Source of the DNA: Octopus vulgaris
Lineage: Eukaryota
NCBI GenBank assembly: GCA_951406725.2
Contig: OX597817.1
Location: forward strand, 65,844,001 to 65,908,000
DNA: 64,000 nucleotides
Direction: 5' to 3'
Position 1 is the first letter of the stretch. The number at the start of each line of letters is the position of its first letter. A program made the translations under genes and the position numbers. Below are positions 2,714 to 61,479 of this stretch, piece after piece. The notes below the pieces were generated by a model, which saw only the letters and a list, made by a program, of their open reading frames with translations, was not told the DNA's origin and searched no databases.

Positions 2714-2778
2714 ATTTCGGTTTTGTATTTGGTTTGCTAGATTCTTCATGTGAATTCGTGTGCTGAAGCATATTTTAT

Positions 2779-3025
2779 TGTCTGAGAAGAGTCATTCTCT
2801 TTTAGTGCTTAATTAATTTAACACATTAACTGATTTCCACTCATTTACTTATTTATTTCTACTAAAATTTCCGTTGCGACTTGCAACCTTTTCAATAGTC
2901 GTTGACACTTGAAAATGTTGTAAGTCGCAACGAAAATTTTAGTAAAAATGAATAAGTAAATGAGTGTAAATCGGCGAATGTGTCAAATTAATAAGGAATT
3001 AAAAGAAAACGACCCTCCCCAGACA
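2779..3025. repeat. Fold-back inverted repeat, arms about 117 bp
   Basis: 2779-2895 is the imperfect reverse complement of 2909-3025. Same sequence family as 46943-47162. Confidence 0.85.
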
Positions 3026-3803
3026 CTATATATGAAAAGAATAAGAATGATGTCTTTGAAAATTGTTTTTCAGCTTTAATGATAGGATGTTCACAAATCA
3101 TATTGTGCCTGTTTTTCTAGTGGTCAGATGTTTTATATCTTTAAAAAATGGTCCTTGATATCGGACTGAGATTTTTGCTTGAAAGCAATTTCCAAACTGT
3201 TCATATTTGGTGTCAGAGTTCTTTTAAAGTAGTCTTAGTATTAGTCCGGGTATTGGTGGGGGTGTTACAAACTTATATATACATTGACACGCACACCTCA
3301 CATACACGCAAAGACTTTAACTCAGTTTCCGTCTATCAAATTCACTCGCAAGACGTTAGTGAAAGAGGCTTGTCCAACATGTCATGCAATAAGAGTAAAC
3401 GCGAATCCACGTGGAGGCGACAGATATATATGTATACTCAGTGGGTATTTGAGCAATGCGTTCGTGGATAGGAAATGGGTCTGATGTGCTGCTCATGAAA
3501 GAACAATAACTCTTGTACTATGCATATACACCTGTTACCTATTTATTCTATCTTTCATCACATTGCTTACAAAGGCGTATTCTTATAAATGAAAACAACG
3601 CATTGGTAACACGAAACTAGGGCACAATATTGATCTGTAAGCCTTTAATATACTTGGTAGTATATAATGGTTGTAAAATGAAATATTGTGTCCTTGCTAG
3701 CATTTATATCTGTGCATATATATGTATGTATGGACGTTCGTATATGTAAGTACAACGTTTGTTCTGCATATATATATATATCTGTATTTATGTACTTTGA
3801 TAT

Positions 3804-5990: not shown

Positions 5991-6076
<86 letters not shown>

Positions 6077-6176
6077 TAATCCAAACATGAAAACACAAAG
6101 GGAAAACACAACAACGCGAGGACTTGGAACAAGTATAGTGTTATTAGACGCTCAGGAAAGGAAAGAAAGAAGGAGG

Positions 6177-6211
6177 ATTTAACGTTTCGAGCGGAGCTCT
6201 TCGTCAGAAAC
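6177..6211 (-). ncRNA. Minimal hammerhead ribozyme motif
   Basis: Minus strand GTTT-CTGACGA-A-GAGC-TCC-GCTC-GAAACGTT-AAAT, inside a unit of about 220 bp (6073-6285) next to (TA)n. Confidence 0.65.
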
Positions 6212-6461
6212 AAAGAAAAAGGAAAGATCCAAGGAAGGAAGACGGAGGAAAAAAAATCGCCGACGATACACACGCGGTCACATATTGAATGGGTGAAGGG
6301 AATGGGTGAAGAAAAAGTTCTTTCAAAGACAGGAGAGTGCAAGAGAAGGAGGTATGTGTGTGTATGTGCGCGCGCGCAGGTGTGTGTGTGTATGTGTGTG
6401 TGGTTGGGCTTAGTATCGTTTAAGGTCATAGGAAGAATGTATAGTAGGAGTAGCTCATACA

Positions 6462-6530
<69 letters not shown>

Positions 6531-6535
<5 letters not shown>

Positions 6536-6748
6536 AATTAAGGACTGAACACGAAAAAGTGGACAGTCAACATGCTAGATATAGACGTCAAATCGCCATT
6601 CTCCACAAAAAGTCTATGTTCTCAGATCAAACTCAACACAAAAGTTTGATCTGAGAACATAGACTTTTGTGGAGAATGGCGATTTGACGTCTATATCTAG
6701 CATGTTGACTGTCCACTTTTTCGTGTTCAGTCCTTAATTGGTATATAT
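6531..6748. repeat. Near-perfect palindrome (arms about 103 bp, 9-nt loop)
   Basis: 6531-6633 versus 6643-6748 differ by one A in a homopolymer run; loop is CAACACAAA. Confidence 0.95.
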
Positions 6749-6835
6749 AAATATTTTAATCTTCGGATTCTTTCTTTAATATGCTAGACCACTGGTTCTA
6801 ATTGATAAATATCAATTTTTACCCTAAATTTAATG

Positions 6836-11047: not shown

Positions 11048-11156
<109 letters not shown>

Positions 11157-11933
11157 AATTTAGAACAAACAGTAAATTGTCATTACTCGGAGTTTCGAAA
11201 GTAAGAGTGAAGAGCTACAATGCATTCTCGTCGGCTATTAATGGCAATGGACGCTATAAAAAAAGGCGTTGAATAAAAGGGAAGTTACTCTGATTTGTAG
11301 AAAAAGAAAAATGAAAAAATACACGCAACTATATTCTAACGATACATAGACATAAGCCTCCTGCATTCATAACGTCTACATACGTACACACCCACACAAA
11401 CATGTATACGTACATGTACATACACACACAAACATGTATGTACATGTATGTACTCATACATACACATATCCACTTACAGATGCAGACATGTGTATATATA
11501 TGTGTGTGTGTGTGTGTGTACGCAACTTCATCCTCATATACACATAGGTGTTTGCATGCATACAAGTAACATAATACATATATATTTAGACATTTATACA
11601 TATTAATATACGTATATATATATATATATATATATACAGGTATACATTCACACTCCCGCATACACGTATATACATATAAAAGTTAAATAATGATGGTAGA
11701 AATTAATATTAATTAATTAATATCAATTTAAACCAGTGGCCCAGCATACTTTAAAAATCCGAAGGTTAAGAAATTATATTACATACATATATAAGAGGAA
11801 TAATCACCAAGGTGGACTCCTAATATGCTAGAAGAAGACGCTAAATCGTCTTACCACGAAGAATGTGCTCTCAAGAAATTTCAGCAAACGCTAGAATATA
11901 AAACGAGCAAGACAAATGAAAAGATAGTAATAA

Positions 11934-11998
11934 GCTATATACCTTGATTTCGTTGTTAACATTCACGAATGTAAATGTCCGCAGCTCTTCAGTGCAGC
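11934..11998 (-). ncRNA. Hammerhead ribozyme motif (intact core, slightly eroded stems)
   Basis: Minus strand GCTGCA-CTGAAGA-GCTG...CAAC-GAAA-TCAAGG-TA-TATAGC. Confidence 0.6.
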
Positions 11999-12535
11999 CG
12001 TTAACTTTTGAATAACCAAGCAATAATAAATTTCTGAGCGAAAATTAAACAGAAGCAGCACGACAGGTTTCTACTCAAAAACCCGGGTTCGTGTGTATCA
12101 CTTCAGGCTAGAAATGGGAAGGATGATTTCTCTTCGCAAATACTGATCGGGTACAGACAGTGTGTCATTAGCCAGCTGGAGGAGATGTCTTCCTGGGACT
12201 ATAAACTACAGTAGCAAAGTCCCATATGGGGCAGCTACATTTAGGTGGCAAATATAGTTCACGATGTCGTGCTGCTACTGTTTAATTCTCGCTCAGAGAT
12301 CTATTATTGCTTGTTTCTCCTTTTTCCAGATCAGTGACTTTTTGTCACTAGAAAAAGCATACGTACATATATATATATACACATATATATATGCATTTAC
12401 GTGTATGCAGGAGTATGAATGTATGCTGTATATACATACATACGTATATCTATATGCCTAAATGTCTAAATATATATGTATTATGTTACGTGTATGCATG
12501 CAAACACCTATGTGTATATGAGGATGAAGTTGAGT

Positions 12536-12579
<44 letters not shown>

Positions 12580-12836
12580 CGTATGCGTGTGTGGATATGC
12601 GTATGTATGAGTACGTACATGCACGTTAGTGTGCGTATGCGCATGTAGGTATACATGCTTGTATGAGTATGTACGTATGTAGACATTATGAACGCAGGAG
12701 GTTTATGTCTATGTATTGTGAGAATATGGTTGCGTGTATTTTTTTAATCTTTTATCTTTTTTTTCTTTTTCTACCTATTAGAGTAACTTCCCTTATATTC
12801 AACGGTTTTTTTAACACCGTCTATTACCATTAACAG

Positions 12837-12887
12837 CCGACGAGAATGCATCGTAGCTCTTCGCTTCGACATTCGAAACTCCGAGTA
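12837..12887 (+). ncRNA. Hammerhead-like motif (U4C variant); mirror copy at 11184-11234 (-)
   Basis: CCGACGA-GAATG...CATTC-GAAA-CTC-C-GAG-TA. Stems II and III pair; stem I is weak. Confidence 0.5.
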
Positions 12888-12974
12888 TTATAACTTACTA
12901 TTTGTTCTAAATTCTAACATATGTAAATAATCCTCTATTTAAATAATATGGAGGTCTTATTCTTTTGTTACCAC

Positions 12975-13128: not shown

Positions 13129-13674
13129 CATACACACATACATACATATATACGTATATATATATATTTATATAACATATAATACAATATAAATAATATA
13201 TAAATATATATATGCATATATACATACATTTATGTACATACCTACATATATATGTGTATATACATGCATATATGGACACAGGACATCAAAAAAAAGTTAA
13301 ACACAATGAGAAACGAAAACATAAAAACAACATGGAAACGAACATTTTTTCGGACAACGAAAAAAAAACCAGAGAAAAGAGACATACAACATAAAGAATA
13401 TTCCCCTTCTTCAATTGTGCCTGTTTCAACTACTCCACGTTACGAAGGCAAAGACAAGACGCAACTTCGTTGAAACAGTCCTTCCCGCAAAGCAAATTAA
13501 ATAAATTTGGGATTTTTTGCGGAGGGTGAAAGTGGTAACAAGAACTGGACAATGAGAACAAAACAGTAAAAGCAATAAAAAAGTAAAAACAGTAAAAGAC
13601 AGAACCATGAGAACAAAACAGTAACAACAAACGATGAGGGCTGTTAAGTCAAGACGATGGAAAAATTTCTCATG

Positions 13675-13730
13675 CTCGTATCACCGTGATTTCGAACTTT
13701 GAGAAATACTCTTTGTTCATCTTCAGCGAG
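13675..13730 (-). ncRNA. Hammerhead ribozyme (type I, intact core)
   Basis: Minus strand CTCG-CTGAAGA-T-GAAC(aaaGAGtatttCTCaaa)GTTC-GAAA-TCAC-G-GTGA-TA-CGAG. All three stems pair; AUA cleavage triplet. Confidence 0.85.
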
Positions 13731-14528
13731 TCTTACTGCCCCCGAGAGTATAGAGTTTAATCATTTCAACCAATGTGTACGATGACCATTTTTAATATCG
13801 CAGCAAATTAAAAAAAGGTGATCAAAGTGAATAAAAATTATTTGAATATAAATGAGGATATTATTGTTTATAATAATATCAGTTGGTTAGCATGCGTCAA
13901 AACCCATAACGGTAAAAAAAAAATTATCAACTAATAATTACGGTATGTTTGACCTTTTTAATTTTCGATTATTTTCGTCATTGGTACAGGATTTTAGGAT
14001 GTTTATTCCTTTGCCCACTTTCACCTTTGTGTTTAAGAGAAAATTTATGGTTTGGTCATTTTGACAGCTATATTTAACATTCCGGTACTACCTGTTAGTA
14101 CTCTTAATTATTACTTGATGATTTTTACTATTGTGGGTTTTTTAGGCATATTAAACCACTGATATTATTATAAACAACAATATCCTCATATATATCTAAA
14201 TAGTTTTTATTCTCTTCGATCACCTTTTTTAAATTAACTGCGGCATTAAAAACGGTCATCATGCACATTGGTTGAGATGAATAAACTCTATAACCCTGGA
14301 GTCAGTAAGACTCGCTGAAGATGAACTAAGAGTATTTCTCAAAATTTGAAATCATGGCGATACTTCTGACGTCTTCAATTTTCGATTATTTTCGTCATTG
14401 GTACGGAGTCTTAGGATTTTTATTCATTTTCCCACTTTCAGCATTGTGTTTAAGCGAAAACTTGTTTGGTCATTTTGACTACTATATTTAAACATTCCGG
14501 TACTGCTTGTTAGTACTCTTAATTATTA

Positions 14529-14529
<1 letters not shown>
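13675..14529. mobile_element. Non-coding inverted plus partial-tandem unit (A'-B-A-B), PLE pLTR-like
   Basis: 13678-13940 is inverted to 14104-14363; 13945-14112 is directly repeated at 14365-14529; ends at (TA)n. Confidence 0.8.
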
Positions 14530-14582
<53 letters not shown>

Positions 14583-15488
14583 TTACGTTCTTATACACAT
14601 CCTTTAATATCTTATACCTGGACCTAGAGGCGTGGGTATATACGTGTGTGTATGTAGTGATGGGCGCGCGTATATACATGTGACCGTGTACGCGCGTAAT
14701 GTCCGTGTATATATGCGGATATTCTGGTGTATGTATGTGTGTGTGCGCGCGTGCGTGTGGGTGCGTGTGTGTTTATGTACGTGTTTACACGCGAGTGCGT
14801 GTGCATGCTTATATGCTTGGAGGCGTATATGTACGCGTGTATGTGGGTGTATGTATCCATGATGATATGTATATACTAGAAGTCCATTTAATTCAAGGAA
14901 CCAGATTAAATGCTCATCAGCTCTGATTTACAACGCATTAAGTCCCCAGACGAAACTGTTGATTTACTGTTGATTTACTGACAATTCTACAACTAAACTT
15001 TATCAATCTCCTGACCACCATGCTTGGTCCGTAACCTCTATACACTCCTTATCTTTACATTCTTTTACACTTTTATCATGGTCTTATCAGATTTTTTTAC
15101 TTTTATTTCTATTTCTATTTTTACTTTATAACCTTATGCCTTTACATTTATTTACATTTCTTTATATTTCTCTATACCCCCTTTACATCTCCTTACAACT
15201 CTTTATATCTTTATCCTCTACATTTTTATATTATTCTATACTTACACTTTTTATACACTTTTTATCCCTCGTCCCGAACTCTCGCCCCTCCATCTTCACC
15301 TCTATATATGTATTTATTTATTTACATTACCTCAACATCCAATTTTCCTCATTCTACATTGAGAGAAGAAAGAGATGGACGCTTCAATTCTATGCTGCTG
15401 CCGCATTATGTCGTACGTGAATGAGAGGATTTGCATCCCCAACCAAGAATTTTTGATGTAACACATGTCCTTGCGGAAGCTGTTGTGC

Positions 15489-15566
15489 GCGGCTGAAGAA
15501 GGCCACAGACATACATTATGCATTGTTATAAATCTGTCTAATAAAGGCCCGAAACATATGTACCGC
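15489..15566 (+). ncRNA. Hammerhead ribozyme (type I, intact core)
   Basis: GCGG-CTGAAGA-AGGCC...GGCCC-GAAA-CATATG-TA-CCGC. Palindromic stem III ACATATGT and GUA triplet. Confidence 0.85.
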
Positions 15567-17034: not shown

Positions 17035-17493
17035 TAAAAGTTATTACAAAAGGAGTGGAGAAGGAAGAGGAAGAATTTAGAGTGGTAGTGGTTGTCGTGT
17101 TGTTTATATTGTTGTTGCTGTTGTTGTTGGTGGTGGTGCTGCTGCTGCTCCTGGTGCTCGTGCTCATGCTCGTGTCGAAAGAAAATCTATAGCGACATCA
17201 TGAACCCCACAACCAGCAGAAAGCAGAGAACTTCAAGCCAGCCTTAACGAGAGATGCGGATTGGGGAGCTTTATTAGGTCACACAATCTGCATTAAAATA
17301 GTCCCCCAACTCTCCCTCAAAATTACAGCCCTATCATTTTACCAGAAAGGATACAGTGAATTGTGTAGCTCTACATATATTATGCCTGAAAATAAGATGA
17401 GATGATCATGGCTGAAAGGTTCACTCGATTGGAAGAGAGCAAGAGGAAAACAATAACGATGTAGTTATAGGAACTCTTAAAAAAAAACAAACA

Positions 17494-17904
17494 GGCGCAG
17501 GAGTGGCTGTGTAGTAAGTAGCTTGCTTACCAACCACATGGTTCCGGGCTCATTCCCACTGCGTGGCACCTTGGGCAAGTGTCTTCTATTATAGCCTCGG
17601 GCCGACCAAAACCTTGTGAGTGGATTTGGTAGACGGAAACTGGAAGAAGCCCGTCGTATATATGTATATATATGTATGTGTGTATATGTTTGTGTCTGTG
17701 TTTGTTCCACCCACCCACCATTGCTTGACAACCGATGCTGGTGGTTTACGTCCCCGTAACTTAGCGGTTCAGCAAAAGAGACTGATAGAATAAGTACTAG
17801 GCTTACAAAGAATAAGTCCTAGGGTCGATTTACTCGACTAGAAGGTGGTGCTCCAGCATGGCCGCAGTCAAATGACTGAAACAAGTAAAAGGGAGTAAAG
17901 AGAA
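17494..17904 (+). mobile_element. tRNA-derived SINE, family A (full length)
   Basis: Pol III A-box-like TGGCTGTGTAG and B-box-like GGCTCATTCCC, internal microsatellite and (GTAAAAGA)-type tail. Closely similar to 43134-43558. Confidence 0.9.
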
Positions 17905-18198
17905 TAGTCATAGATGAAGTATCTTTTACACTAGGCTTCTTCAATCAGATCTGACTTGAGGTTAATCAGCAACGACAGTGTTAATAACATCAAGAACAGT
18001 AACAACGATAACAACAGAAACAGTAACTAGTAGTGATCAAACGAAAGACATTCTAAGCTGTCACTTATCCTGCTGGAAATAGCTGCCAAATCTCCTTCAA
18101 CTCTCATTATGTTAGCTTGAAAATATAGATAGATACATTTAATAAAGTGAAGCAGGACATAAAAACATAAATGAACTACAACTGCAACACCCACAATG

Positions 18199-21212: not shown

Positions 21213-22086
21213 ACGTATGTATGTAGTAATCAGATGACGATTCATTCCGCTTATATCTTCAAGCTTCACGCGTTCTTTTAGCCAATAGAATATTAACTAC
21301 TCTCTAAACGAAAAGTATGTATGTATATATATATACATATATACAGACGCGCGCACACACACACACATACACACACACATATATACTCTACCTCCGGTAT
21401 TTGAGTACTCTTTTTCCACCTTGTTTCACATTTATGTGCTTACTCTGGCATGTGTGTGTGTGTAATCGATATTTTCTCTGTATCATCATTATGACATTTT
21501 GCCAGAGTAACAGAAAGGAAAGAAGGAGTTTAAAGTAGACAAAACTCTGTAGAAATTAGGGAAGAAGATGGATAAAGTGGGAAGACGATGACTGAGTTGA
21601 CATTTTGTGATTTTAAGCAAATTCTAAAGATTTCACTAAAATTCTAATGCTAAGTTCAGTCGATTTTGCTAGACGCAATATAAAATCAAAAAGGAAAACT
21701 TCAATCATTACTAATTGTGACTGAGGGTGCGGAAGTGTCTATATTGCACGATTGTCATGGTTTCGCATTTAGCACCAAAAACACACTTGATTCTCCTCAA
21801 TCAAGTCTACTAGTGACTTTCAACCAATGCCTGTGTTCGTTTCGGTGCCCAAGCTGCACTGAGAAAAACGAATCAAGTGAATACAATTTGTTTTACAAAA
21901 ATAAGTAAAGAACATTAATACTCATAAGATCTATTAAAGTGGCCACAAGCTAAAACCGTACAGGCAAAATAGAAATATATAAAAGAAATATATGTAGTAA
22001 GGGCGAATTTTTAAAGACACCAGGACGCCATGATAGATCGTTAGCTACTACACGTATTTTTTTCTCTCCTTGTTTTTTTCTGTGTA

Positions 22087-22124
22087 TCTTTCTGTCGAAG
22101 AGCGTAGGCTCGAAACGTAAAAGA
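22087..22124 (+). ncRNA. Minimal hammerhead motif (A6U variant)
   Basis: TCTTT-CTGTCGA-A-GAGC-GTAG-GCTC-GAAACGTA-AAAGA; 5-bp stem I. Confidence 0.6.
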
Positions 22125-22224
22125 CTTTTTCTATTCTTGAGCGCTATACTAATACATTTGTTTGTTTGTACTCCACCTGCCTTCGTCCTTTGTTTATTTT
22201 CGTAAACTTTCCCTTTATATATAT

Positions 22225-22490
22225 ATATAATATAAATATATGCATATATACATACAAATATGTACATACTTACATATATATGTATATATAGATGCATATA
22301 TGGGTACAGGACATCAAAAAACGTTGAACACAATGAGAAACGAAACATTTTGTTTTTATGTTTTCGTTTCTCATTGTGTTCAACGTTTCTTTTGATGTCC
22401 TGTACCCATATATGCATGTATATATACATATATATGTAGATATGTACATATATGTATGTTTTTATATGCATATATTTATATATTATTTAT
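22225..22490. repeat. Fold-back palindrome (arms about 120 bp)
   Basis: ATGCATATATGGGTACAGGACATCAAAA..CGTTGAACACAATGAGAAACGAAA versus its reverse complement from about 22358. The arm is homologous to 13210-13330. Confidence 0.9.
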
Positions 22491-22532: not shown

Positions 22533-22581
<49 letters not shown>

Positions 22582-22617
22582 TAATTGAGATTCTCTTGGG
22601 AATTCTCTGATATTTTT

Positions 22618-22701
22618 TCGGCTGACGAGTACGAGCCATCTGTATTCACTGCATTTTTTGTAGCTTATTAAAGATGTCCTCGTACGAAACGATCGTACCG
22701 A
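22618..22701 (+). ncRNA. Hammerhead ribozyme (type I, fully canonical)
   Basis: TCGG-CTGACGA-GTACGAG...CTCGTAC-GAAA-CGATCG-TA-CCGA. 7-bp stem II, palindromic stem III ACGATCGT, predicted cleavage after A22697. Confidence 0.92.
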
Positions 22702-22726
22702 GATTTTAATCCATTCTTGTTGCTTT

Positions 22727-22769
<43 letters not shown>

Positions 22770-27119: not shown

Positions 27120-28435
27120 TCGGGGAGAAATATGCTGTTGTACTTTTATGTTCTGAGTTCAAATAAGGTTGACTTCACCTTTTATCCTTGCTGGTGGGGG
27201 TCGATAAAATATTTATTATTCAGTCAATTACTTATGATTGGTATAGCACAAAATGTGTGTGTGTTGGAAGTGCTATTATTAGGATTGGCGAAGGCAGCGA
27301 GCTGGCAGAATCGTTAGCACACCGGGCAAAATGCTTAGCGGCATTTCGTCAGTTCTGAGTTGAAATTCTGCCGAGGTCGACCTTGCCTTTCATAATTTCG
27401 GGGTCAATAAAATAAGTACCAGTTGAAGCCTTGTACCTATAGTAGAAAGGATTATTCGTATTGACTAATGCGGCGAGGTGGTAGAACCGTTAGCATACCG
27501 GGTTAAATGCTTAGAGGCATTTTATCCGTCTGAGTTCAAATACTACCGAGGTCGACTTTGCTTTTCTTCCTTTCGGGGTCGATAAAATAAGTACTAGTTA
27601 AGCACTGCATTCGATGAAATCGGCTTATCACGTTCCTTGAAATTGCTGGCCTTGTGCCAAAATTTCAAACTGTTATTACGATTGACTAAGGCAGCGATCC
27701 AGCAGAATCATTACTGTCCCAGATAAAATATTTAGCGGCCTCTCGTCCATCTTTATGTTCCCAGTTCAAATTCCGCCGAGGTCAATCTTACATTTCATCT
27801 TTTCGGGATCGATAAAATAAGAGCCAGTTGAGCATTGGGGTCGATGCAATTGACTATCCCCCTCCCCCAAATGTCAGGCCTTGTGCTTATAGTAGAAGGG
27901 ATTATCATTATTTGCAAGGAAGATTCCACCGAGGTTGACTTTTCTTTTCATCCTTTCGATCGATGAAATAAGTACCAGATGAGCCTTGTGCCTATAGTGG
28001 AAGGGGTTATTTGTAAGGCTGCAAGCTGGCAGAATCGACGGAAAAATGCTTTGTGTTATTAGTTCCGGTTCTTTACTTTCTGAGTTCAAATCCAATGAAG
28101 ACCACCCTTGTCTTTCAAGGTCGAGAAAATAAAATTTCCAGTCAAGTGCTGAGGCCGATGGCATTGACTTACCCCTTTCCAACAAAATAGCTGGTCTTGT
28201 ATATAAATCAGAAACCACTAGTCGGCGAGATGGCAGAATCGATAGCACGCCAGACAAAATATTTAGCGGCATTTCGTTCGGCTTTATGTTTTGAGTTCAA
28301 CAGCCACTGAGGTCGACTTTGCCTTTCATTATTTCGGGGTCGATAAAATAATTGCCAGTTGAGCACTGGGGTCGATGTAATCAACTTACCCCGTTCCCCG
28401 AAATTTCTGGCCACGTGCCAAAATTTGAAAACATC
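27120..28435 (+). mobile_element. Head-to-tail cluster of about 7 SINE-like family D units
   Basis: Recurrent GCTGGCAGAATCGTTAGCA..GAGTTCAAATTC.GCCGAGGTCGACTTTGCCTTTCATCCTTTCGGGGTCGATAAAATAAGTACCAG at about 27120, 27292, 27468, 27688, 27920, 28016 and 28222. Other copies at 28830-29035(-), 29500-29700, 42005-42200(-), 48025-48235, 52680-52820(-), 55750-55955(-), 57400-57520 and 61228-61440(-). Confidence 0.85.
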
Positions 28436-30204
28436 ATTATGAGTGGTATAAAGGCAAATACCACAATATCATTCTTAAAGGTGATAAGCTAGTTGATACC
28501 AGAATATAATTATTTTGGGTGACAAGGCAGTAGATAACAGAATCAGACAAAATGTATTGTGATGTTAAGATACGGCGCTAAAATCTATAGCTCTATGATG
28601 GTTAAAGTACCAGTAATATGCTGTTGAAGATTTAATCGACACTTCACTTCCTTTGTATTTGTGTCTTTGTACCACTGTTAAAAATCCTAGCTGAAGGTGA
28701 TAGCTCTATGGTTAGCAGAATGGGAAGAGTAACAGACAAAATAATTGCCGTATTTACGTTACATTTCTTTGCATTCCGAGTTTAAACTATATCGCAAATG
28801 AGTTTCCCTTCTTTTCTAGAGATCGGTAAAATTCTTTCTAATTTTGGCACAAAGCCAGCAATTTTTAAAGGAAAGAGCAAGCCGATTACATTGACCACTG
28901 CTCAACCGGTCCTTTTTTTTTATCGATACCGGAAGAATGAAAAACGAAGTCGACCTCCGCGAAATTTGAACACAGAACTTAAGGAATCGAAAGAAATACC
29001 ACTAAGTCCGACATGTTAAAGAATTTGCCAGCTCGCCGTCTGGGATCGATAAATTAGTAACAGTTATATAGTGGTATGGATTATGTTGATAATGCATTTC
29101 CTTATAGTTTGTTGACTTTGTGTCAACATAAGCAATAAATGTTATTAGGAGAGCCACTAATACCTCCTCTTCCCTTTTCAAGACTGTAAGGAGTAATTTG
29201 GAACAGATTTGATTGCTATTTCTAGCAGGTCGAGACACTTTTAGGGAGTGCCCCTCGGTAGGTTATTTGTGCGCGCGTGCGTGCATCGTTAAGCTTACAG
29301 TTGTTGTAGTCGTAGTTGTAAATATTCTTGTTATTACCGTAGATGTTTATTTAATGCATGGTAAACCCCAATCGAGCAGGTCTGTGAACAAAAAACGGTC
29401 ATCGTAATCCAGCCACGACCATCTCGTCTTTCTTAGTTATGTAGGACTACACTACCTAATATGTCATGTCTTAATCTAGAAAATTAGAGGGTAATTTAAG
29501 GGCGAAATGTTTAGCGGTATTTCGTCTGCCGTTACGTTGTCAGTTCAAATTCCGCCGAGGTCGACTTTGCCTTTCATCCTTTCGGAGTCGATTAAATTAA
29601 GTACCAGTTACGCACTGGGGTCGATGTAATCGACTTAATCCGTTTGTCTGTCCTTGTTTGTCCCCTCTGTGTTTAGCCCCTTATGGGTAGTAAAGAAATA
29701 GGTAATTTAAGGGAGATTCATTTTTTTATTTCAAGCAGATCAACTTACTATCTTGCCCTCATCCCTCACGTTAGCTCTTGTTATGTGTTACAGTATCAGC
29801 AGCCATAAATGCAGCAGCTGTTATAGCTGTGTTTGATGTTAATATTAGTGTTGCTGATGTTACAGTTATCATTTTTTTATCTTCTGATGTTACAGCTGTT
29901 AATGTCGTTATCGTTGTTGCTGTTTCTGTCGTGGTTACATTCCTATTATGTGCTGCTGTTACACCTGTTTATAGTGCTACTACTAATGTTACTGTCCTGT
30001 TATTGCTGCTGTTACACCTGTTAATGTTGCTGTTATTAATGTCACAATCCACTTATGTGCTGCTGTTACACCTGTTAATGTTGCTGTTGTTAATATTATA
30101 ATCCTCGTATGTGCTGCAGTTATACTTGTTACTCTTGTAATTAATGTTAAAGTCCTGTTATGTACTGCTGTTACTAATATAAATGTTATTGTTGTCGTTA
30201 TTAT

Positions 30205-30508
30205 TACAGTTTTGTCATATGCTAAGTTACACCTGTTAATGTTACAGTTTTGTCATATGCTATGTTACACCTGTTAATGTTACAGTTTTGTCATATGCTA
30301 TGTTACACCTGTTAATGTTACAGTTTTGTCATATGCTATGTTACACTTGTTAATGTTACAGTTTTGTCATATGCTATGTTACACCTGTTAATGTTACAGT
30401 TTTATCATGCTATGTTACACCTGTTAATGTTACAGTTTTGTCATATGCTATGTTACACCTGTTAATGTTACAGTTTTGTCATATGCTATGTTACACCTGT
30501 TAATGTTA
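30205..30508. repeat. 38-bp minisatellite, 8 units, within a degenerate halo (about 29830-30780)
   Basis: Unit TACAGTTTTGTCATATGCTATGTTACACCTGTTAATGT starts at 30205, 30243, 30281, 30319, 30357, 30395, 30431 and 30469. Confidence 0.95.
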
Positions 30509-31018
30509 CTGTTACTATTCTGGTATATGCCGCTGTTACACCTGTTAATGTTGTTGTTACAATCCTGCTATATGCTGCTGTTACACCTGTTAATGTTACT
30601 TTTGCTGTTGTTAATGTTACAGTCCTGCTATGTATTGCTATTACAAATATCAATGCTACTGTTGTTGCTATAGTTACAGTTCAGGTATATGCCGCTGTTA
30701 CACCTGTTAATGTTGCTGTTGGTAATGTTACAGTCCTGATATATACAGTTGTTACACCTGTTAATGCTTCGTTTCTATTAATGTTACATTCCTAATATGT
30801 GTGGCTGTTGCTGTTATTATTATTGTCACAACCTTGTTATGTGCTGCTGTTGTAATTAAAGTCTTCTTACCCATTAACACTTTTGTCACTGTTCCATTTG
30901 ATTAAGTTTCTCTTATTACTGTTAGTCATGTTACAATTGTTAATGTTGTTTGTTGTTAAAGTCATGCTATGCACCGATGATACAGCTCTACTGTTGTAGT
31001 TGTTGTTCTTCTTCTTCT

Positions 31019-41852: not shown

Positions 41853-42445
41853 GCATACACATACACATACACATACATGTGTGTTTATCACCAAGCACTT
41901 ACTACCCTATGTTAGAGCTGATGTAATTTAATGTAATATGCAGGCAAGTATTCATGTGTAAAATCTACTGGCAAGCAATATTAATAGTTAAATATTGATC
42001 TCATATTTTGGCACAAGGCCAGCAATTTTAGGGATGGCCTTAAGTCTATTACATCAACCCCAATGCTCAATTGCAATTTATTTTATTAGTCTTGAAAGCA
42101 TGAAAGGCAAAAGCCTCAGCAGCATTTGAACATAGAATATAAGTTAGAAAAAATTCTGCTAATCATTTTTTCTTAGCATGGTAACAATTCTGCCAGCTCT
42201 CGGTGTTATTAACAGTTAAATATTAAAAAATTTATAAATGCAAATTATCATGCACATGCATGTGTTGTTGTATCTTGGTATGGTCATCTTTGCCAGTAAG
42301 AAACACATGCACTGATTCTACTTCTCTTCTTTTTATTATTATTAGGCAGCTATTTAACCAGTTGCTTGAATTTATCATTGGCCCTACCAAGACACAACTA
42401 TTTCAACACATAGTCTCACAACAGGAATCTTAGAAAACATACATA

Positions 42446-42896: not shown

Positions 42897-43133
42897 ATAC
42901 AGACACACATGAACACACACACATGCTATCTATCTATCTATCTATCTATCTATCCGCTCAGTCGAAGTCGACTCTCAGTTACTCGTTGGATTAGTGTCCT
43001 CCAACCACGTCCTCGTGTTGTTGTTTTTTCTTGTTTGTTCTTCTTTGTTTGGATTCACTATATATATATATATATTACACATATATATACATATATAAAT
43101 GAATAAAGAATATTAATACTAATGAGAAATATA

Positions 43134-43298
43134 GGTGCAGGAGTGGCTGTGTGGTAAGTAGCTTGCTTACCAACCACATGGTTCCGGGTTCAGTCCCACT
43201 GCGTGGCATCTTGGGCAAGTGTCTTCTGCTATAGCCCCGGGCCGACCAATGCCTTGTGAGTGGATTTGGTAGACGGAAACTGAAAGAAGCCTGTCGTA

Positions 43299-43339
<41 letters not shown>

Positions 43340-43558
43340 TTGTGTGTCTGTGTTTGTCCCCCTAGCATTGCCTGACAACCGATGCTGGTGTGTTTACGTC
43401 ACCGTAACTTAGCGGCTTGGCAAAAGAGACCGATAGAATAAGTACTAGGCTTACAAAGAATAAGTCCCGGAGTCGATTTGCTCGACTAAAGGCGGTCCTC
43501 CAGCATGGCCACAGTCAAATGACTGAAACAAGTAAAAGAGTAAAAGAGAAAGAGTAAA
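43134..43558 (+). mobile_element. tRNA-derived SINE, family A (full length)
   Basis: TGGCTGTGTGGTAAG (A box) and GGTTCAGTCCC (B box). Partial copies at 42650-42780(-), 45565-45770 and 53385-53505(-). Confidence 0.9.
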
Positions 43559-47947: not shown

Positions 47948-49311
47948 ACACACACACACACACACACGCATCTTTTCATTTATACAACAATGTACAACTA
48001 TATCAATATCATACCACAAACATTTAAGCTGGCAGAATCATTAGCAACCAGAGCAAAATGTTTAGTGGTATTTCACCCATCATTACTTTCTGAGTTCAAA
48101 TCCCTGCTGAGGTTGCCATTGCCTTTCATCCTTTTGGGGTCGATAAATAAGTTCCAGCTGAGCACTGGGATTGATGTAATCAATTTAACCCCTATCCCGA
48201 AATTGCTGGCTTTGTGCCAAAATTTGAAGCCAATATCATACCACTAACATAACCAGTAATATCATACCATCAATTAGACCAATTCCATATCACTAACATA
48301 ATCAGCAATAAAATTATAGCACCAACACCAATATCACACCACTAGCATTGTACCATTAATGGAGACAATATCATAATATTGGACACAGGTAAAGAATGGA
48401 ATGGTCAAAGCTGGAATGCTTTCATTCACAGGTCTGCTCACTCAGTGCTGACCTAGGGTGGAACAGAAGCAAATATACAAATAACAACATAAAATCAGCA
48501 TCATACAAACACTGATATTATACCAGTAATAAAACAAACAACAGATCTTGTTCTACCACCAGTCATGCAACAACAAGCAACCAATGAAATCCACTTACTC
48601 CTTTTAAGCAAAATTGGTGCTGTTTTAGCTGTTATGTGGTTGCTCAATCTGCTCAAATCATTCAAATAAGATGAAGGGATTATGGGATAATTTGATCTTA
48701 GATACACTTCTTAGAAAAAAAAAAATCTTACTGGATTGCCACCATTAGAATGTCTTTCACTAATGGTCTGTTCAATGCCACCACTAACAACAACAACAAT
48801 CACTGAGGCATAATGAAGGAATTATGAGATTGTACGATGTTAGATACACTTCCTAAAAAAATTCTACTGGATAGCCATCTCTAGGATGTCTTTAACTAAT
48901 GGGCTGCCTACTACCACCACCACCAGCAACAACAATAACGACTATCTGCCTCTGTACCAGCAACACCAAAGAGTATCAAATACAACAACACACACAGAAG
49001 ACAAAAAATTCTAATAATAACAAACAACACATCTACAACATTCACAACACATATAGAAAATGAATATAAGTTAAACAGAGCAAAACAACATACAACACCA
49101 AAGACTCTTCACATGCTAACAGTAAAACAGCAACACTAGAATGCAAACAATATATTGAAGTCATTATGACTGTAATACTTGAGCCACCACTTCACTACAA
49201 CAAATCACAAAGAACATCATTCAGCCTACTTCACACCAGAAGAGCTTTCATGTAAACCAGATCATCATCATCATCATCATTATCATCACCACCACCACCA
49301 CTAACAACACC

Positions 49312-51634: not shown

Positions 51635-53150
51635 AATATAGCGAAGAAACAACACTATACAACCAATAGCACCATCATGCAATCATACAGATAACATAGT
51701 CATCAATATCATACCATCAACAATATTTTTATCATAATACATGATCATAATACCATCAACACCTATATCATAGTATTACTGTAACCAAGAACATATCGTA
51801 GCATCAACAATTCTAAATTGTATCACAATTTGGAACAGCTACATATAAATATCAGCTAAACAGTGTTCAAGTCTTACTTTGTCATCTTTGATGAGGAAAA
51901 ACCTATGAGCCACTACAAAACAAAAGAAAAAGAAATAGGTGGTCATAATTGGTATGACTTTGATCTGATTGGTATGAGATTAAACAGTAAGCCAATAACA
52001 TAATACAATAACACAATAGCATCAACCAATTTAACATTATATCAATAATACAATCAAAATCACTTTTGATAAAATTAATACCATACCAAACAAGAGCATC
52101 ACACCAACACTAACATCAGTACCCATAATATAGGCAACAATAACATTGTACTACTAACTGTAACAGTATAATATCACTAACATAACTATCAACAATGACT
52201 ATGTACCATTAACAACATCATATCATCAACAGCACCAACATCTTAGCACAAAGTTAACAGACATCAAGCCATCAACATAACCAACATCATACCATCAACA
52301 ACACCAATAAAATGCCATTAAATTAATCAACATCATATTGTAAAACACATCAATATAAGGTTAATATAACTATGACTATAACGCAATTAATAACACTATT
52401 ATTATACCATTTGTATAATCAATAACATACCGTCAATAACATTAATATTGTACTGCTAACATAATCATTACCATTATACTATCAATAATATAAATGCCAT
52501 GCTATTAACATAAACAATAACATCATGCATTCATATAAAAAAAAAACAACATCATAACACTAATATAAAATATAGCACCACACCATCAATAAGACCGATA
52601 TCATACCACAAACATAATCAATAACATACAATGAACAACACTAATATCAAACAAATAATATGAACATTAATTTTTTGTACTACAGGTGCAAGGCTTGAAA
52701 TTTTGCAGGGAGGTGGCTAGTTGGAACTTATTTTATTGACCCCAAAATGATGAAAGGCAAAGTCAACCTTGGTGGAACTTGAACTAAGAACATAAAGACC
52801 ATTCTGCCAACTTGCCAACTTAATAATAGGAATAATAATATCATACAATTATACATAGCTATAGTCATAAAACTACCATAAACATCAATGAAATATATAA
52901 AAAAAAAAAATACCATAAGAAAATCAGTCAATATCACCACTAACATAACTATCAACAGCAACAATATCATACCACCAACATAATAAACATCATACCATCA
53001 ACACCATCAATAAAATATTACTAAATTAATCAACAATATGCTAGTATCAAAATACTATCATAATCATCAGCAATATTATACCACTAACAATAACAAAAAA
53101 AACATCAATAACACCAATATCACAAGGCTAGCATAGCAAATATCATACTA

Positions 53151-55665: not shown

Positions 55666-57280
55666 CGACCTGGAGAGACTCCCTGGTTTCCGAGTTATAC
55701 ACCCTGTCATATCATCAACTCCCAATATCATGCTAGTAACATAATTAACAATCCTTTCTACTATAGGCACAAGGCTAACAATGGGGGAGGGGTCCAGTCG
55801 GCTATATTGACCACAGCATTCAACTGGTACTTACTTCAACTCCCGAAAGAATGAAAAGCGATGTCAGCCTCGGCGGTATTTGAACTCAAATTGCAAAGAC
55901 GGACGAATTGCCGCTATGCATTTTGTGTGGCGTGCTAACGATCTGCCAGCTCGCTACCCTAACATAATAGACAATAACAACATACTGTCAACACCAAAGT
56001 CACACTACAAACTTAACCTGCGCCATACAGTTTCATTATTTTGCTCTTGGTTAACTATGATTAACAAGACTACATATTAAGACATTCAGTTAGAGTTATA
56101 TTTTCTTTTCTGTTAGTGTATGGGAAGGGTTATCTAAAACTACGATACCCAATGTCACCCAATTGCAGCATTTGATCTGAAAAGGTTTTGGTTGCTATTT
56201 GTAAGATCAAGAGCTTACAGGCTTTAACTTGTTTTCCTCCTAGCTCTGATGTATGCTATTTTGGTACTCTTAAGAACACCAACAGCACCATCGCACCAAC
56301 TGCACTAGCTAACTTGTATTTCGCTCGATCTAAAAGAAATAGCAGCCCAAATCGCCTCCGAATCACACTTTAATGTCTTAGAAAAATACACGCCGGGATA
56401 GCCTCAGATGGAATGCCTTTGGCAATAGGTAGACTCAATGAGGCTGATGTATGGCTAAACAAGAAGCATAACAGTAAAGTGGAGTCTGAGGGAGATTAGG
56501 CTGCTAATTCTAACAAATCGCCCTACCGCATTGAGGCCTCCTTACTGTGGCTGTGCGACTGGCACACAGAAGTTACGTATCACAGAACTGCTTGATTACA
56601 GCTAACCTGGGGTTATACCACCACCACCACGACCACCAACACCACCAACAACAACGACTAAAACATTAACAGCAAAAATAAAAACAAAAAAAAAACAGCA
56701 GCTGCATCCAGCTCTACAGTCAGAAAACAAACAGAGCAACTTAAACGATATTGACAACAATTGCAGCAACGACAACAATGCCAACAATATGAACTACAAC
56801 AACAATAATCAATGAATCAATTTTCAACCTATAGACCTCTGCACAACCAACAGAACTAAACAACAAAAACGACGACGACGGCAATAATAATACCCAGCTA
56901 CCTACAAGAAGAAAAGATAAACTAAGATGAACACAGTTTCTGAGGAGAAAGAGAGAGAGAGAGAGGAAAAGAGAAAGAGAGTGGGTTAGGAGAGAAAGAA
57001 ATAAGTGAATGAGAAAGAAGAGGCGGAGTGCATTAGAAAGTGAAGTACTTTTACCAACCAGCCCTTCACTTCATTTTCCCCCCTCTCCGTTGACAAAATA
57101 CATCATGTTTAGTCTGTTTATGTCGGTCCTCTTTGATGCTTAAAATCTCCTCCAAATTCATTTTAAAATAAACAAAATTTACAAAGCATAAGTATTCTAT
57201 ATTCAGACTATCGAGATGGGTCAATAATTATCGAGAGAGCCAAATTACACACGCACATAACACACACACACGCACACACA

Positions 57281-58275: not shown

Positions 58276-58448
58276 ATAACCTTTTGATAGGATTCATAAA
58301 CATTTAATGCACGTTTTCACAAATCACATGTCTCTTAAAATCACAGTCCGTATTCCTGAAATGATTACAGTGTAATCATCTCAAGAATACAGACTGTGAT
58401 TTTAAGCGATGCATTAAATGTTTATATCTTCCATCCAAGGATTATTGT
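58274..58448. repeat. Fold-back hairpin next to (TA)n
   Basis: CTTAAAATCACAGTC.GTATTC.TGA.ATGATTAC versus GTAATCAT.TCA.GAATAC.GACTGTGATTTTAAG, plus outer AAACATTTAATGCA/TGCATTAAATGTTT. Confidence 0.85.
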
Positions 58449-60707: not shown

Positions 60708-61479
60708 CTTGAACGTAAATATTTTAACCGCTAGTTCAGTCATGTGAGATGCTAGTTCCTTTCCTTTTCACTCTCTTATTAGATATGTATTTGACAAGTC
60801 AGTTAGAAAGGTGCCGGTAATTTAACAATGTCAAAAGCTCAAATCTGTTGTCGAATTCTATGACATGGCGATCTTGAAATAAGGTAATGCCTAATATAGA
60901 CAAACATACATACACATACATGCAAACATGCATGTAGGCAACCATGCATGCATACACAGACATAATGATTGCTTCATCTTATCAGATGATAGCCGACTCA
61001 TTATTCATCGCTTATTCAACTTCTGTTTACTGTCACACGACCATGTACTTTAGGATTATTCATAAGACCAGCTAATGATTAACAATGTCACAAGAAAATA
61101 TCACTAACAAAACTTAACGTATCTTATACACCGATTATGTCTGCCTGTACTACGTGTCTTTGTAGCCTAGATTTTGACTATGTGCTTTGCTGTACACTGT
61201 ATGTAAAATATCTGTATCCATAAATATTGGTTTCAAATTTTGGCACAAAGCTAACAACTCCGGGGATGGGGTAAGTCGATTACAGCGACCCCAGTCCTTA
61301 AACTGGTACTTATTTTATCGACCTCCGAAAGGATGAAAGGCAAAGTCGACCTCGGTGGAATTTAGACTCAGGACGTAAAGGACGAAATGCCGCTAAGCAT
61401 TTTGCCCGGTGCGGTAACTTTTTTGACAGTTCACTGCCTTAATGTATCTGTAAATATTACCAGAGCACATCCACGGTTA

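Follow-up and report, generated by a model that had tools for sequence, protein, structure and literature searches.

Does an inverted repeat that stops at the predicted cleavage site of a hammerhead ribozyme record the end of the RNA from which it was reverse transcribed? The question is raised by an A'-B-A-B element within the window, by which we mean the whole 64,000-nucleotide stretch analysed here, microsatellite-rich, animal-type DNA of 31-41% GC with repeats that resemble those of cephalopod or penaeid genomes. The original prediction, made from the letters of the sequence, had read the stop at 14363 as a possible record of reverse transcription of a self-cleaved or circular RNA of about 420 nt. 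Our analysis leads to the verdict that the feature is real, that the flagged junction likely reflects later decay, and that the architecture is one already known.

The predicted order of segments was borne out by BLASTN and pairwise alignment. The inverted segment A' (13671-13940, minus strand) begins at the B/A boundary and extends to 4-8 nt past the predicted cut; its portion 13678-13940 is the reverse complement of 14105-14363 (83.0% identity over 264 columns, E 3e-74). It meets segment B1 (13941-14104, plus strand), which in the family follows the cut site, at an inversion joint (13940-13947). B1 is followed by the direct, pseudo-LTR-like copy of A (14105-14362, plus strand), by B2 (14364-14530, plus strand), and by a (TA)n microsatellite (14529-14581) at the 3' end of the element. 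The two B segments are direct repeats (13950-14113 and 14367-14528; 86.7% identity, E 2e-51), and the last 9-11 nt of B2 are the AT-rich start of A. The end of B2 is likely the primary start of reverse transcription, and the (TA)n run is likely the insertion target. The end of B forms a 7-bp hairpin (14084-14102, repeated at 14499-14517, plus strand; -5.8 and -5.5 kcal/mol), the 3' arm of which contains the microhomology partner of the inversion joint. The B-A period, predicted to be about 420 bp, measures 415-417 bp, and the repeat unit has 422 nt at 31% GC. A and A' differ at 39 of 258 positions and B1 and B2 at 18 of 161 (Fisher p 0.31); this divergence marks the locus as old and, being similar for the two pairs, is compatible with a single event. 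No further copy of A or B was found within the window by the same two methods, and no displaced B' lies to the left of the neighbouring repeat.

The minus-strand hammerhead at 13675-13730 likewise stood up. It has a stem I of 4 bp, a CUGAAGA core with one bulged U, a stem II of 4 bp, the GAAA core, and a near-palindromic helix III; cleavage is predicted after A13679, that is, between 13679 and 13678. A strict type I descriptor, which this motif fits, has two matches in the window and none in 100 dinucleotide shuffles. The core of the minimal hammerheads of Penelope-like elements (PLEs; CUGANGA, GAAA, NUH, and helices I and II) is present in the A' copy and absent from the twin, and the minus-strand motif also has the extra base after position 9 and before stem II, the G10.1-C11.1 pair, a helix I within 4-5 bp, and the palindromic helix III of that class. 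By computed energies, the hammerhead fold is not favoured in the monomer (-7.0 kcal/mol when constrained, -11.3 kcal/mol unconstrained), and helix III forms a self-duplex at -11.9 kcal/mol. Since the monomer fold is disfavoured and helix III can pair with a second copy, the hammerhead would likely act as a dimer. Rfam returned no hammerhead among its nine matches in 13600-14530, and none among the matches listed for the whole window (150 of 217). The plus-strand twin at 14311-14363, described at the outset as eroded, is indeed so: it differs from the intact motif at 5 of 53 positions, and its stem II is broken.

No ORF of at least 100 aa lies within the element, in agreement with the lack of coding capacity first noted. 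None of four short frames has a Pfam match. A frame of 56-59 codons, in which both internal indels are multiples of three, starts from an ATG at the beginning of stem II and runs through B; a profile search with it returned no protein at E up to 0.001. We rejected this frame as a gene: a similar frame is open in 8-9% of shuffles, the substitutions fall 5/3/5 over the codon positions, 47% of neutral simulations stay open, and neither Pfam nor the profile search gave a relative. A viroid-like rod fold of the monomer was also considered and discarded, the fold being no better than that of shuffles.

We then compared the locus with other copies of its family, taken as contigs of four public runs (X1, X5, X17, and X22) aligned at 80% likeness; public runs account for 19 of the 24 rows listed as containing the stretch, and the listings of the comparison covered 15 of 195 joints, 24 of 1072 loose ends, and 32 of 8029 pieces. 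No RNA data set is among those listed as containing the stretch; run X22 is RNA by guess only, and its contigs were kept out of claims on expression. Many other family copies align to the element, and summed contig depth, which is no copy number, suggests tens to a few hundred of them. Exact-pattern scans for family copies gave no match in metagenome contigs, viral contigs, or prokaryote genomes. Four kinds of joint among those listed lead from where A' ends to where B starts on the opposite strand. The joint from 13677 to 13942 occurs in all four runs (two contigs in X1, three in X5, one each in X17 and X22), and the others lead from 13677 to 13960, from 13677 to 14374, and from 13678 to 14365. 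One X17 contig connects 14363 to 13943 through the two letters GA, which restore the 3' strand of stem I. In other family copies, the hammerhead is thus followed by this strand of stem I and then by B. Read-through from B into A is seen in X1 record 4 and in joints from 14530 to 14134 and from 14526 to 14157. Read-through in both directions indicates that a non-coding unit of about 420 nt makes up the family. The B1-A joint of this locus is covered by near-identical contigs in two runs (X1 record 5 and X5 record 25; no change in 231 nt and five changes in 245 nt), which indicates a locus common to two organism labels. None of the 32 listed pieces bridges 13940/13941 or this locus's own 14363. 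Four of them stop at 14114-14126 with unmatched letters beyond, which may mark a recurrent 3' end or a break of the alignment at a T-run. The comparison listed no site at which many molecules start or stop, contigs being unable to reveal the ends of molecules.

These contigs bear directly on the flagged junction. The similarity of A' and A does end at C14363, one base past the predicted cut, and to that extent the original prediction holds; a junction at which B restarts (14363/14364) was not borne out, since other family copies read on from A into B. Contigs of X1, X5, and X17 carry extra letters behind 14363/14364. Of the 32 listed pieces, eight span 14363 with at least 37 nt on each side, and seven of the eight are longer than the window by 3-8 nt, an excess that includes other indels, such as a 3-nt gap in B2. 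Relative to the family form, this copy lacks about 6 nt at 14363-14364 (the 3' strand of stem I and the start of B2). The missing letters lie between two short TA repeats, and B2 is back in register with B1 after the gap. Given that family contigs in all four runs read from the hammerhead straight into B, the stop at 14363 is likely a later loss of about 6 nt and not an RNA end. This largely amounts to the private deletion that the original prediction had named as its refutation. The loss may not be strictly private: in the four contigs with the joint from 13678 to 14365, the intervening letters fall outside the 12 of 34 rows listed, and a subfamily may share the short form.

A weaker form of the cut-site idea survives at the inversion break, where two joints that had not been noted before lie at cut+1 to cut+8. 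B1 starts at about cut+1 (13941, one base being lost in this copy), give or take about 2 nt, and A' has its outer end at 13671-13675, or cut+4 to cut+8. The 8 nt past the cut in A' match the post-cut letters of the family at seven positions, and one family contig (X17 record 9) aligns out to 13672. At the inversion joint, GAGTA occurs both where B starts and, as the reverse complement, where B ends; a 5-nt match between random pairs of ends arises in 1.1% of trials. Within B1-A-B2, antisense GAGTA sites occur only at 14103 and at its repeat, 14518. A break at the cut corresponds to about 16 of 420 positions, or 4% (about 1 in 25), for one locus and noticed post hoc, and this value would be higher if the choice of landmark were allowed for. 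A single decayed copy does not suffice to prove that the RNA was cleaved by its ribozyme.

The outer ends of the element are less regular. On the left, A' abuts a different and much more abundant repeat (13400-13667, its left limit unmapped), which is cut short at about 13667 where A' ends and has a summed contig depth one to two orders above that of the element. Loose ends behind 13667 number 31 in X1, 50 in X5, and 4 in X22, and nearly all of the 24 loose ends listed come from this neighbour. The rest of this repeat was not found within the window, so that the left end may have been trimmed later rather than being original. On the right, the element ends inside (TA)n, 174 nt past the cut of the twin, and exceeds the left end, with its possible trimming, by about 165 nt; the tail of PLEs measures 30-40 nt. 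No word of at least 6 nt is common to 13640-13677 and 14520-14620, and we thus found no target-site duplication. In other copies, the continuation of 13400-13667 may open a reading frame, with an ATG just before the break, and the segment could be the 5' part of another retroelement. By eye, 13269-13340 resembles 22303-22350.

From the layout, the read-through of the family in both directions, and the joint positions, we infer a mechanism of insertion. We give an even chance to the reading that the locus is a decayed insertion of a non-coding hammerhead repeat, made by a PLE reverse transcriptase acting in trans, the inverted arm of which arose by twin priming on uncut RNA. The template would have been an uncut RNA two units long, A0-B1-A-B2. 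A first cDNA, primed at a nick in (TA)n, would have started at the end of B2, about 170 nt beyond the hammerhead, and copied B2, A, and B1. A second cDNA, primed at the other target end, would have started 4-8 nt past the cut of the upstream hammerhead and copied A0 into A'. The two cDNA ends would then have been joined over GAGTA, with 3-8 nt around the break duplicated. The ribozyme fold may have favoured a break at this place by stalling the first enzyme, and cleavage would not be required. After insertion, the copies would have drifted 11-15% apart, and the twin would have lost its approximately 6 nt.

Twin priming is suggested because, in element coordinates, the inverted arm ends (cut+4 to cut+8) next to where the direct part starts (cut+1). 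An uncut template is needed because A' reads through the cut; with the family form of A-B2 doing the same, at least one template hammerhead is uncut or religated. The 5-nt microhomology at the joint and the single-event-like divergence of the copies are further points in favour. In L1, twin priming yields neighbouring breakpoints, a duplication of a few nucleotides, and microhomology at the joint (PMC11702581, PMC2837659), and the inversion breakpoints are described as having deletions of 1-10 bp (22 of 32) or duplications (10 of 32) in addition to microhomology (PMC11702581). A reverse-transcription start on the downstream side of the ribozyme is in line with the green anole element and with four other hammerhead-like remnants of the window, whose ends lie 33, 45, 96, and 107 nt beyond their cuts (cut positions approximate). 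For the anole element, Frangieh et al. (2024, PMC11167929) report that reverse transcription starts internally, downstream of the hammerhead, that unprocessed RNA is the main substrate in vitro, and that RNA-seq reads neither begin nor end at the cut. On the other side, twin priming is established for L1 and not for PLEs, and L1 twin-primed inserts keep a target-site duplication, whereas none of at least 6 nt is present here. The searches of the short frames against Pfam and of proteins with a profile of the B frame revealed no autonomous partner, and mobilisation by a PLE rests on the architecture. Finally, the model does not explain why the break falls at the ribozyme, the coincidence of about 4% given above.

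That coincidence is addressed in part by a doubtful alternative, run-off and fold-back on an RNA that was cut by its ribozyme. Here the template B1-A-B2 starts at the cut and its second hammerhead stays uncut; the 3' end of the cDNA folds onto the GAGTA complement at the end of B1, recopies A as A', and joins the target. B1 does begin at about the first base after the cut. The GAGTA end of the cDNA has just the two complementary sites named above (14103 and 14518), A' begins beside the former, and Arkhipova et al. (2013, PMC3846280) describe a proposal of self-priming for PLE ends in head-to-head arrangement. This scheme nevertheless treats the position where A' ends, cut+4 to cut+8, as a coincidence of its own, the start of B1 can be placed no more precisely than about 2 nt in a copy decayed by 11-15%, and the cDNA end could also pair over 5 nt with the complement of stem I at 14314. 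Three points count against the cutting step itself: the hammerhead fold is not favoured in the monomer, minimal PLE hammerheads cleave poorly in vitro according to Cervera and de la Pena (2014, PMC4209133), and the anole reads do not start or end at the cut.

Unlikely, in our judgement, is a purely later origin, in which a canonical head-to-head insertion A'-A0-B-A-B, or another DNA rearrangement, lost A0 between two GAGTA words and the cut is irrelevant. Its starting point, inverted pLTRs placed head to head around a palindromic joint, is the commonest PLE form, and decayed copies often show deletions mediated by microhomology (both PMC3846280). In this locus, A' starts at the hairpin end of B, where a head-to-head joint would be, and other deletions have occurred (at 14363 and in the left flank). 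Given the start of A', only three registers offer a microhomology of at least 5 nt, namely 14095, 14329, and the cut (in the family form), and a break that lands at the cut therefore needs no ribozyme. Register 14329 would, however, have offered a longer match (6 nt), and a deletion gives no account of why A' ends beside the start of B1. Loss of one whole palindrome arm is also less usual than loss of the palindrome centre.

Very improbable, and already largely refuted, is the version of the original prediction, in which the stop at 14363 is the end of a self-cleaved or circular 420-nt RNA where reverse transcription began or jumped: similarity does end one base past the cut, the repeat unit of the family has the size of a retrozyme and can be permuted circularly, and the four contigs with the short joint would fit, but a circle or tandem makes the cut seamless, as it is in family contigs of all four runs, the 6-nt loss between short TA repeats accounts for the twin and leaves B2 in register with B1, and the circular fold of 13941-14362 (-70.4) equals the mean of 40 shuffles (-70.4). 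One decayed locus cannot separate twin priming, fold-back, and late deletion. That the break at cut+1, with its built-in fold-back partner, reflects ribozyme action at all seems to us improbable.

As to its class, we file the locus as a non-autonomous PLE-type insertion. The PLE-like or retrozyme-like framing given to it initially was sound with respect to the hammerhead type, the inverted and partial tandem copies, the (TA)n 3' end, and the unit of about 420 nt at 31% GC. It is neither a proven retrozyme nor an autonomous PLE, since it does not have two intact units and has no ORF, specifically none for the telomerase-like reverse transcriptase and GIY-YIG endonuclease of autonomous EN+ PLEs. 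According to two accounts (Craig et al. 2021, PMC8557442; PMC3846280), an inverted copy on the 5' side with a partial tandem, palindromes at the inverted joint, and a bias for (TA)n are PLE traits. The locus resembles EN+ PLE insertions in the 5' inverted copy, the partial tandem, the hammerhead in the repeated end, the AT-rich or (TA)n target (with the left end adjoining another repeat), the short palindrome at the 5' end of the repeat, and the greater length of one end. By comparison with them, it has no reverse transcriptase or GIY-YIG ORF and no direct A beside the inverted arm. Its extension past the shorter end is about 165 nt instead of a 30-40-nt tail, and it has none of the target-site duplication that is often, not always, present in PLE insertions. 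With minimal PLE hammerheads, as described in PMC4209133, the motif has in common the type I form, the short helix I, the extra base between positions 9 and 10.1, the G10.1-C11.1 pair, and a palindromic helix III suited to dimers. It differs in a longer near-palindromic helix III (5 bp per side) and in a helix II of 4 bp with a distal 3-bp hairpin. The same paper had already noted pairs of motifs on opposite strands 100-700 bp apart.

In animals, non-LTR retrozymes occur as tandem units of 150-450 bp (Cervera and de la Pena 2020, PMC7229834) that likely derived from pLTRs (Li et al. 2026, 10.64898/2026.07.22.740005). The locus is like them in its non-coding unit within that size range, low GC content, type I hammerhead, and likely derivation from a PLE pLTR. 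Unlike them, it comprises about 1.4 direct units in which the direct hammerhead is broken, with the intact hammerhead lying in an inverted arm. Poseidon PAc of the green anole (PMC11167929) also has an ATG at the start of stem II, an insertion 3' end downstream of the hammerhead, and an ATT-rich sequence at the B/A boundary. PAc is autonomous, however, and its reverse transcription starts about 85-92 nt past the cut (111-118 minus 26), compared with about 170 nt here, where the short frame bears no sign of selection and has no relatives. Twin-primed L1 insertions (PMC2837659, PMC11702581) share the inverted upstream piece, the neighbouring breakpoints, the duplication of a few bases, and the microhomology at the joint, but belong to another class of element; poly(A) and a target-site duplication are absent here.

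By itself, the element is one more decayed hammerhead-bearing repeat, of which the window alone has several. Its value as a lead concerns the role of PLE hammerheads in cells and the origin of inverted ends. PMC8557442 calls the function of these hammerheads unclear, and PMC11167929 reports cleavage to be dispensable in vitro. Our literature search, in which subscription papers were thinly covered, gave no report of PLE inversion breaks located at the hammerhead cut. The position of breakpoints relative to the cut can be tallied in a family with tens to hundreds of copies, which bears on both questions. If true and general, a hammerhead that sets where inverted PLE ends form would be the first defined role of the ribozyme in integration.

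Several other features of the window were recorded. A 150-bp insert between two (TA)n runs at 22581-22731 (plus strand) carries an intact-looking type I hammerhead (core at 22622) with a 7-bp stem II, a palindromic helix III, and a fold of -25.9 kcal/mol; the insert extends 33 nt beyond the predicted cut, a textbook tail length. The segment 15487-15607 (plus strand) has a hammerhead-like motif (core at 15493) with a palindromic helix III that the strict descriptor missed, and ends at a (TA)n run 45 nt past the predicted cut. Minimal hammerhead-like remnants at 6073-6460 (minus strand, core at 6207) and 22081-22217 (plus strand, core variant near 22086) end about 100 nt past the cut, in (TA)n.

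Insertions in head-to-head orientation seem common in the window and involve several repeat families. A large inverted repeat at 11154-12916 has arms at about 11154-11680 and 12350-12916 (79-91% identity in pieces), with an inverted pair (12014-12065 and 12265-12316) and a palindrome (11694-11735) in its interior. Fold-back palindromes of 80-250 bp lie at 2776-3028, 6521-6754, 22303-22406, and 58331-58409, several of them flanked by (TA)n. Two dispersed families are SINE-like in size: one of 130-200 bp with about ten copies (27275-29644, 41989-42199, 48027-48236, 52719-52798, 55766-55958, and 61221-61440), and a second at 2413-2713, 17493-17906, and 43133-43550. Degenerate tandem repeats, about 107-160 bp in period and 66-73% identical, form an array at 29884-30851. 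Finally, the segment 951-1469 (plus strand), which we take to be perhaps a remnant of the Tigger/pogo type, contains a frame (1161-1466) with a weak match to DDE_1 (E 0.003, below the curated cut-off).
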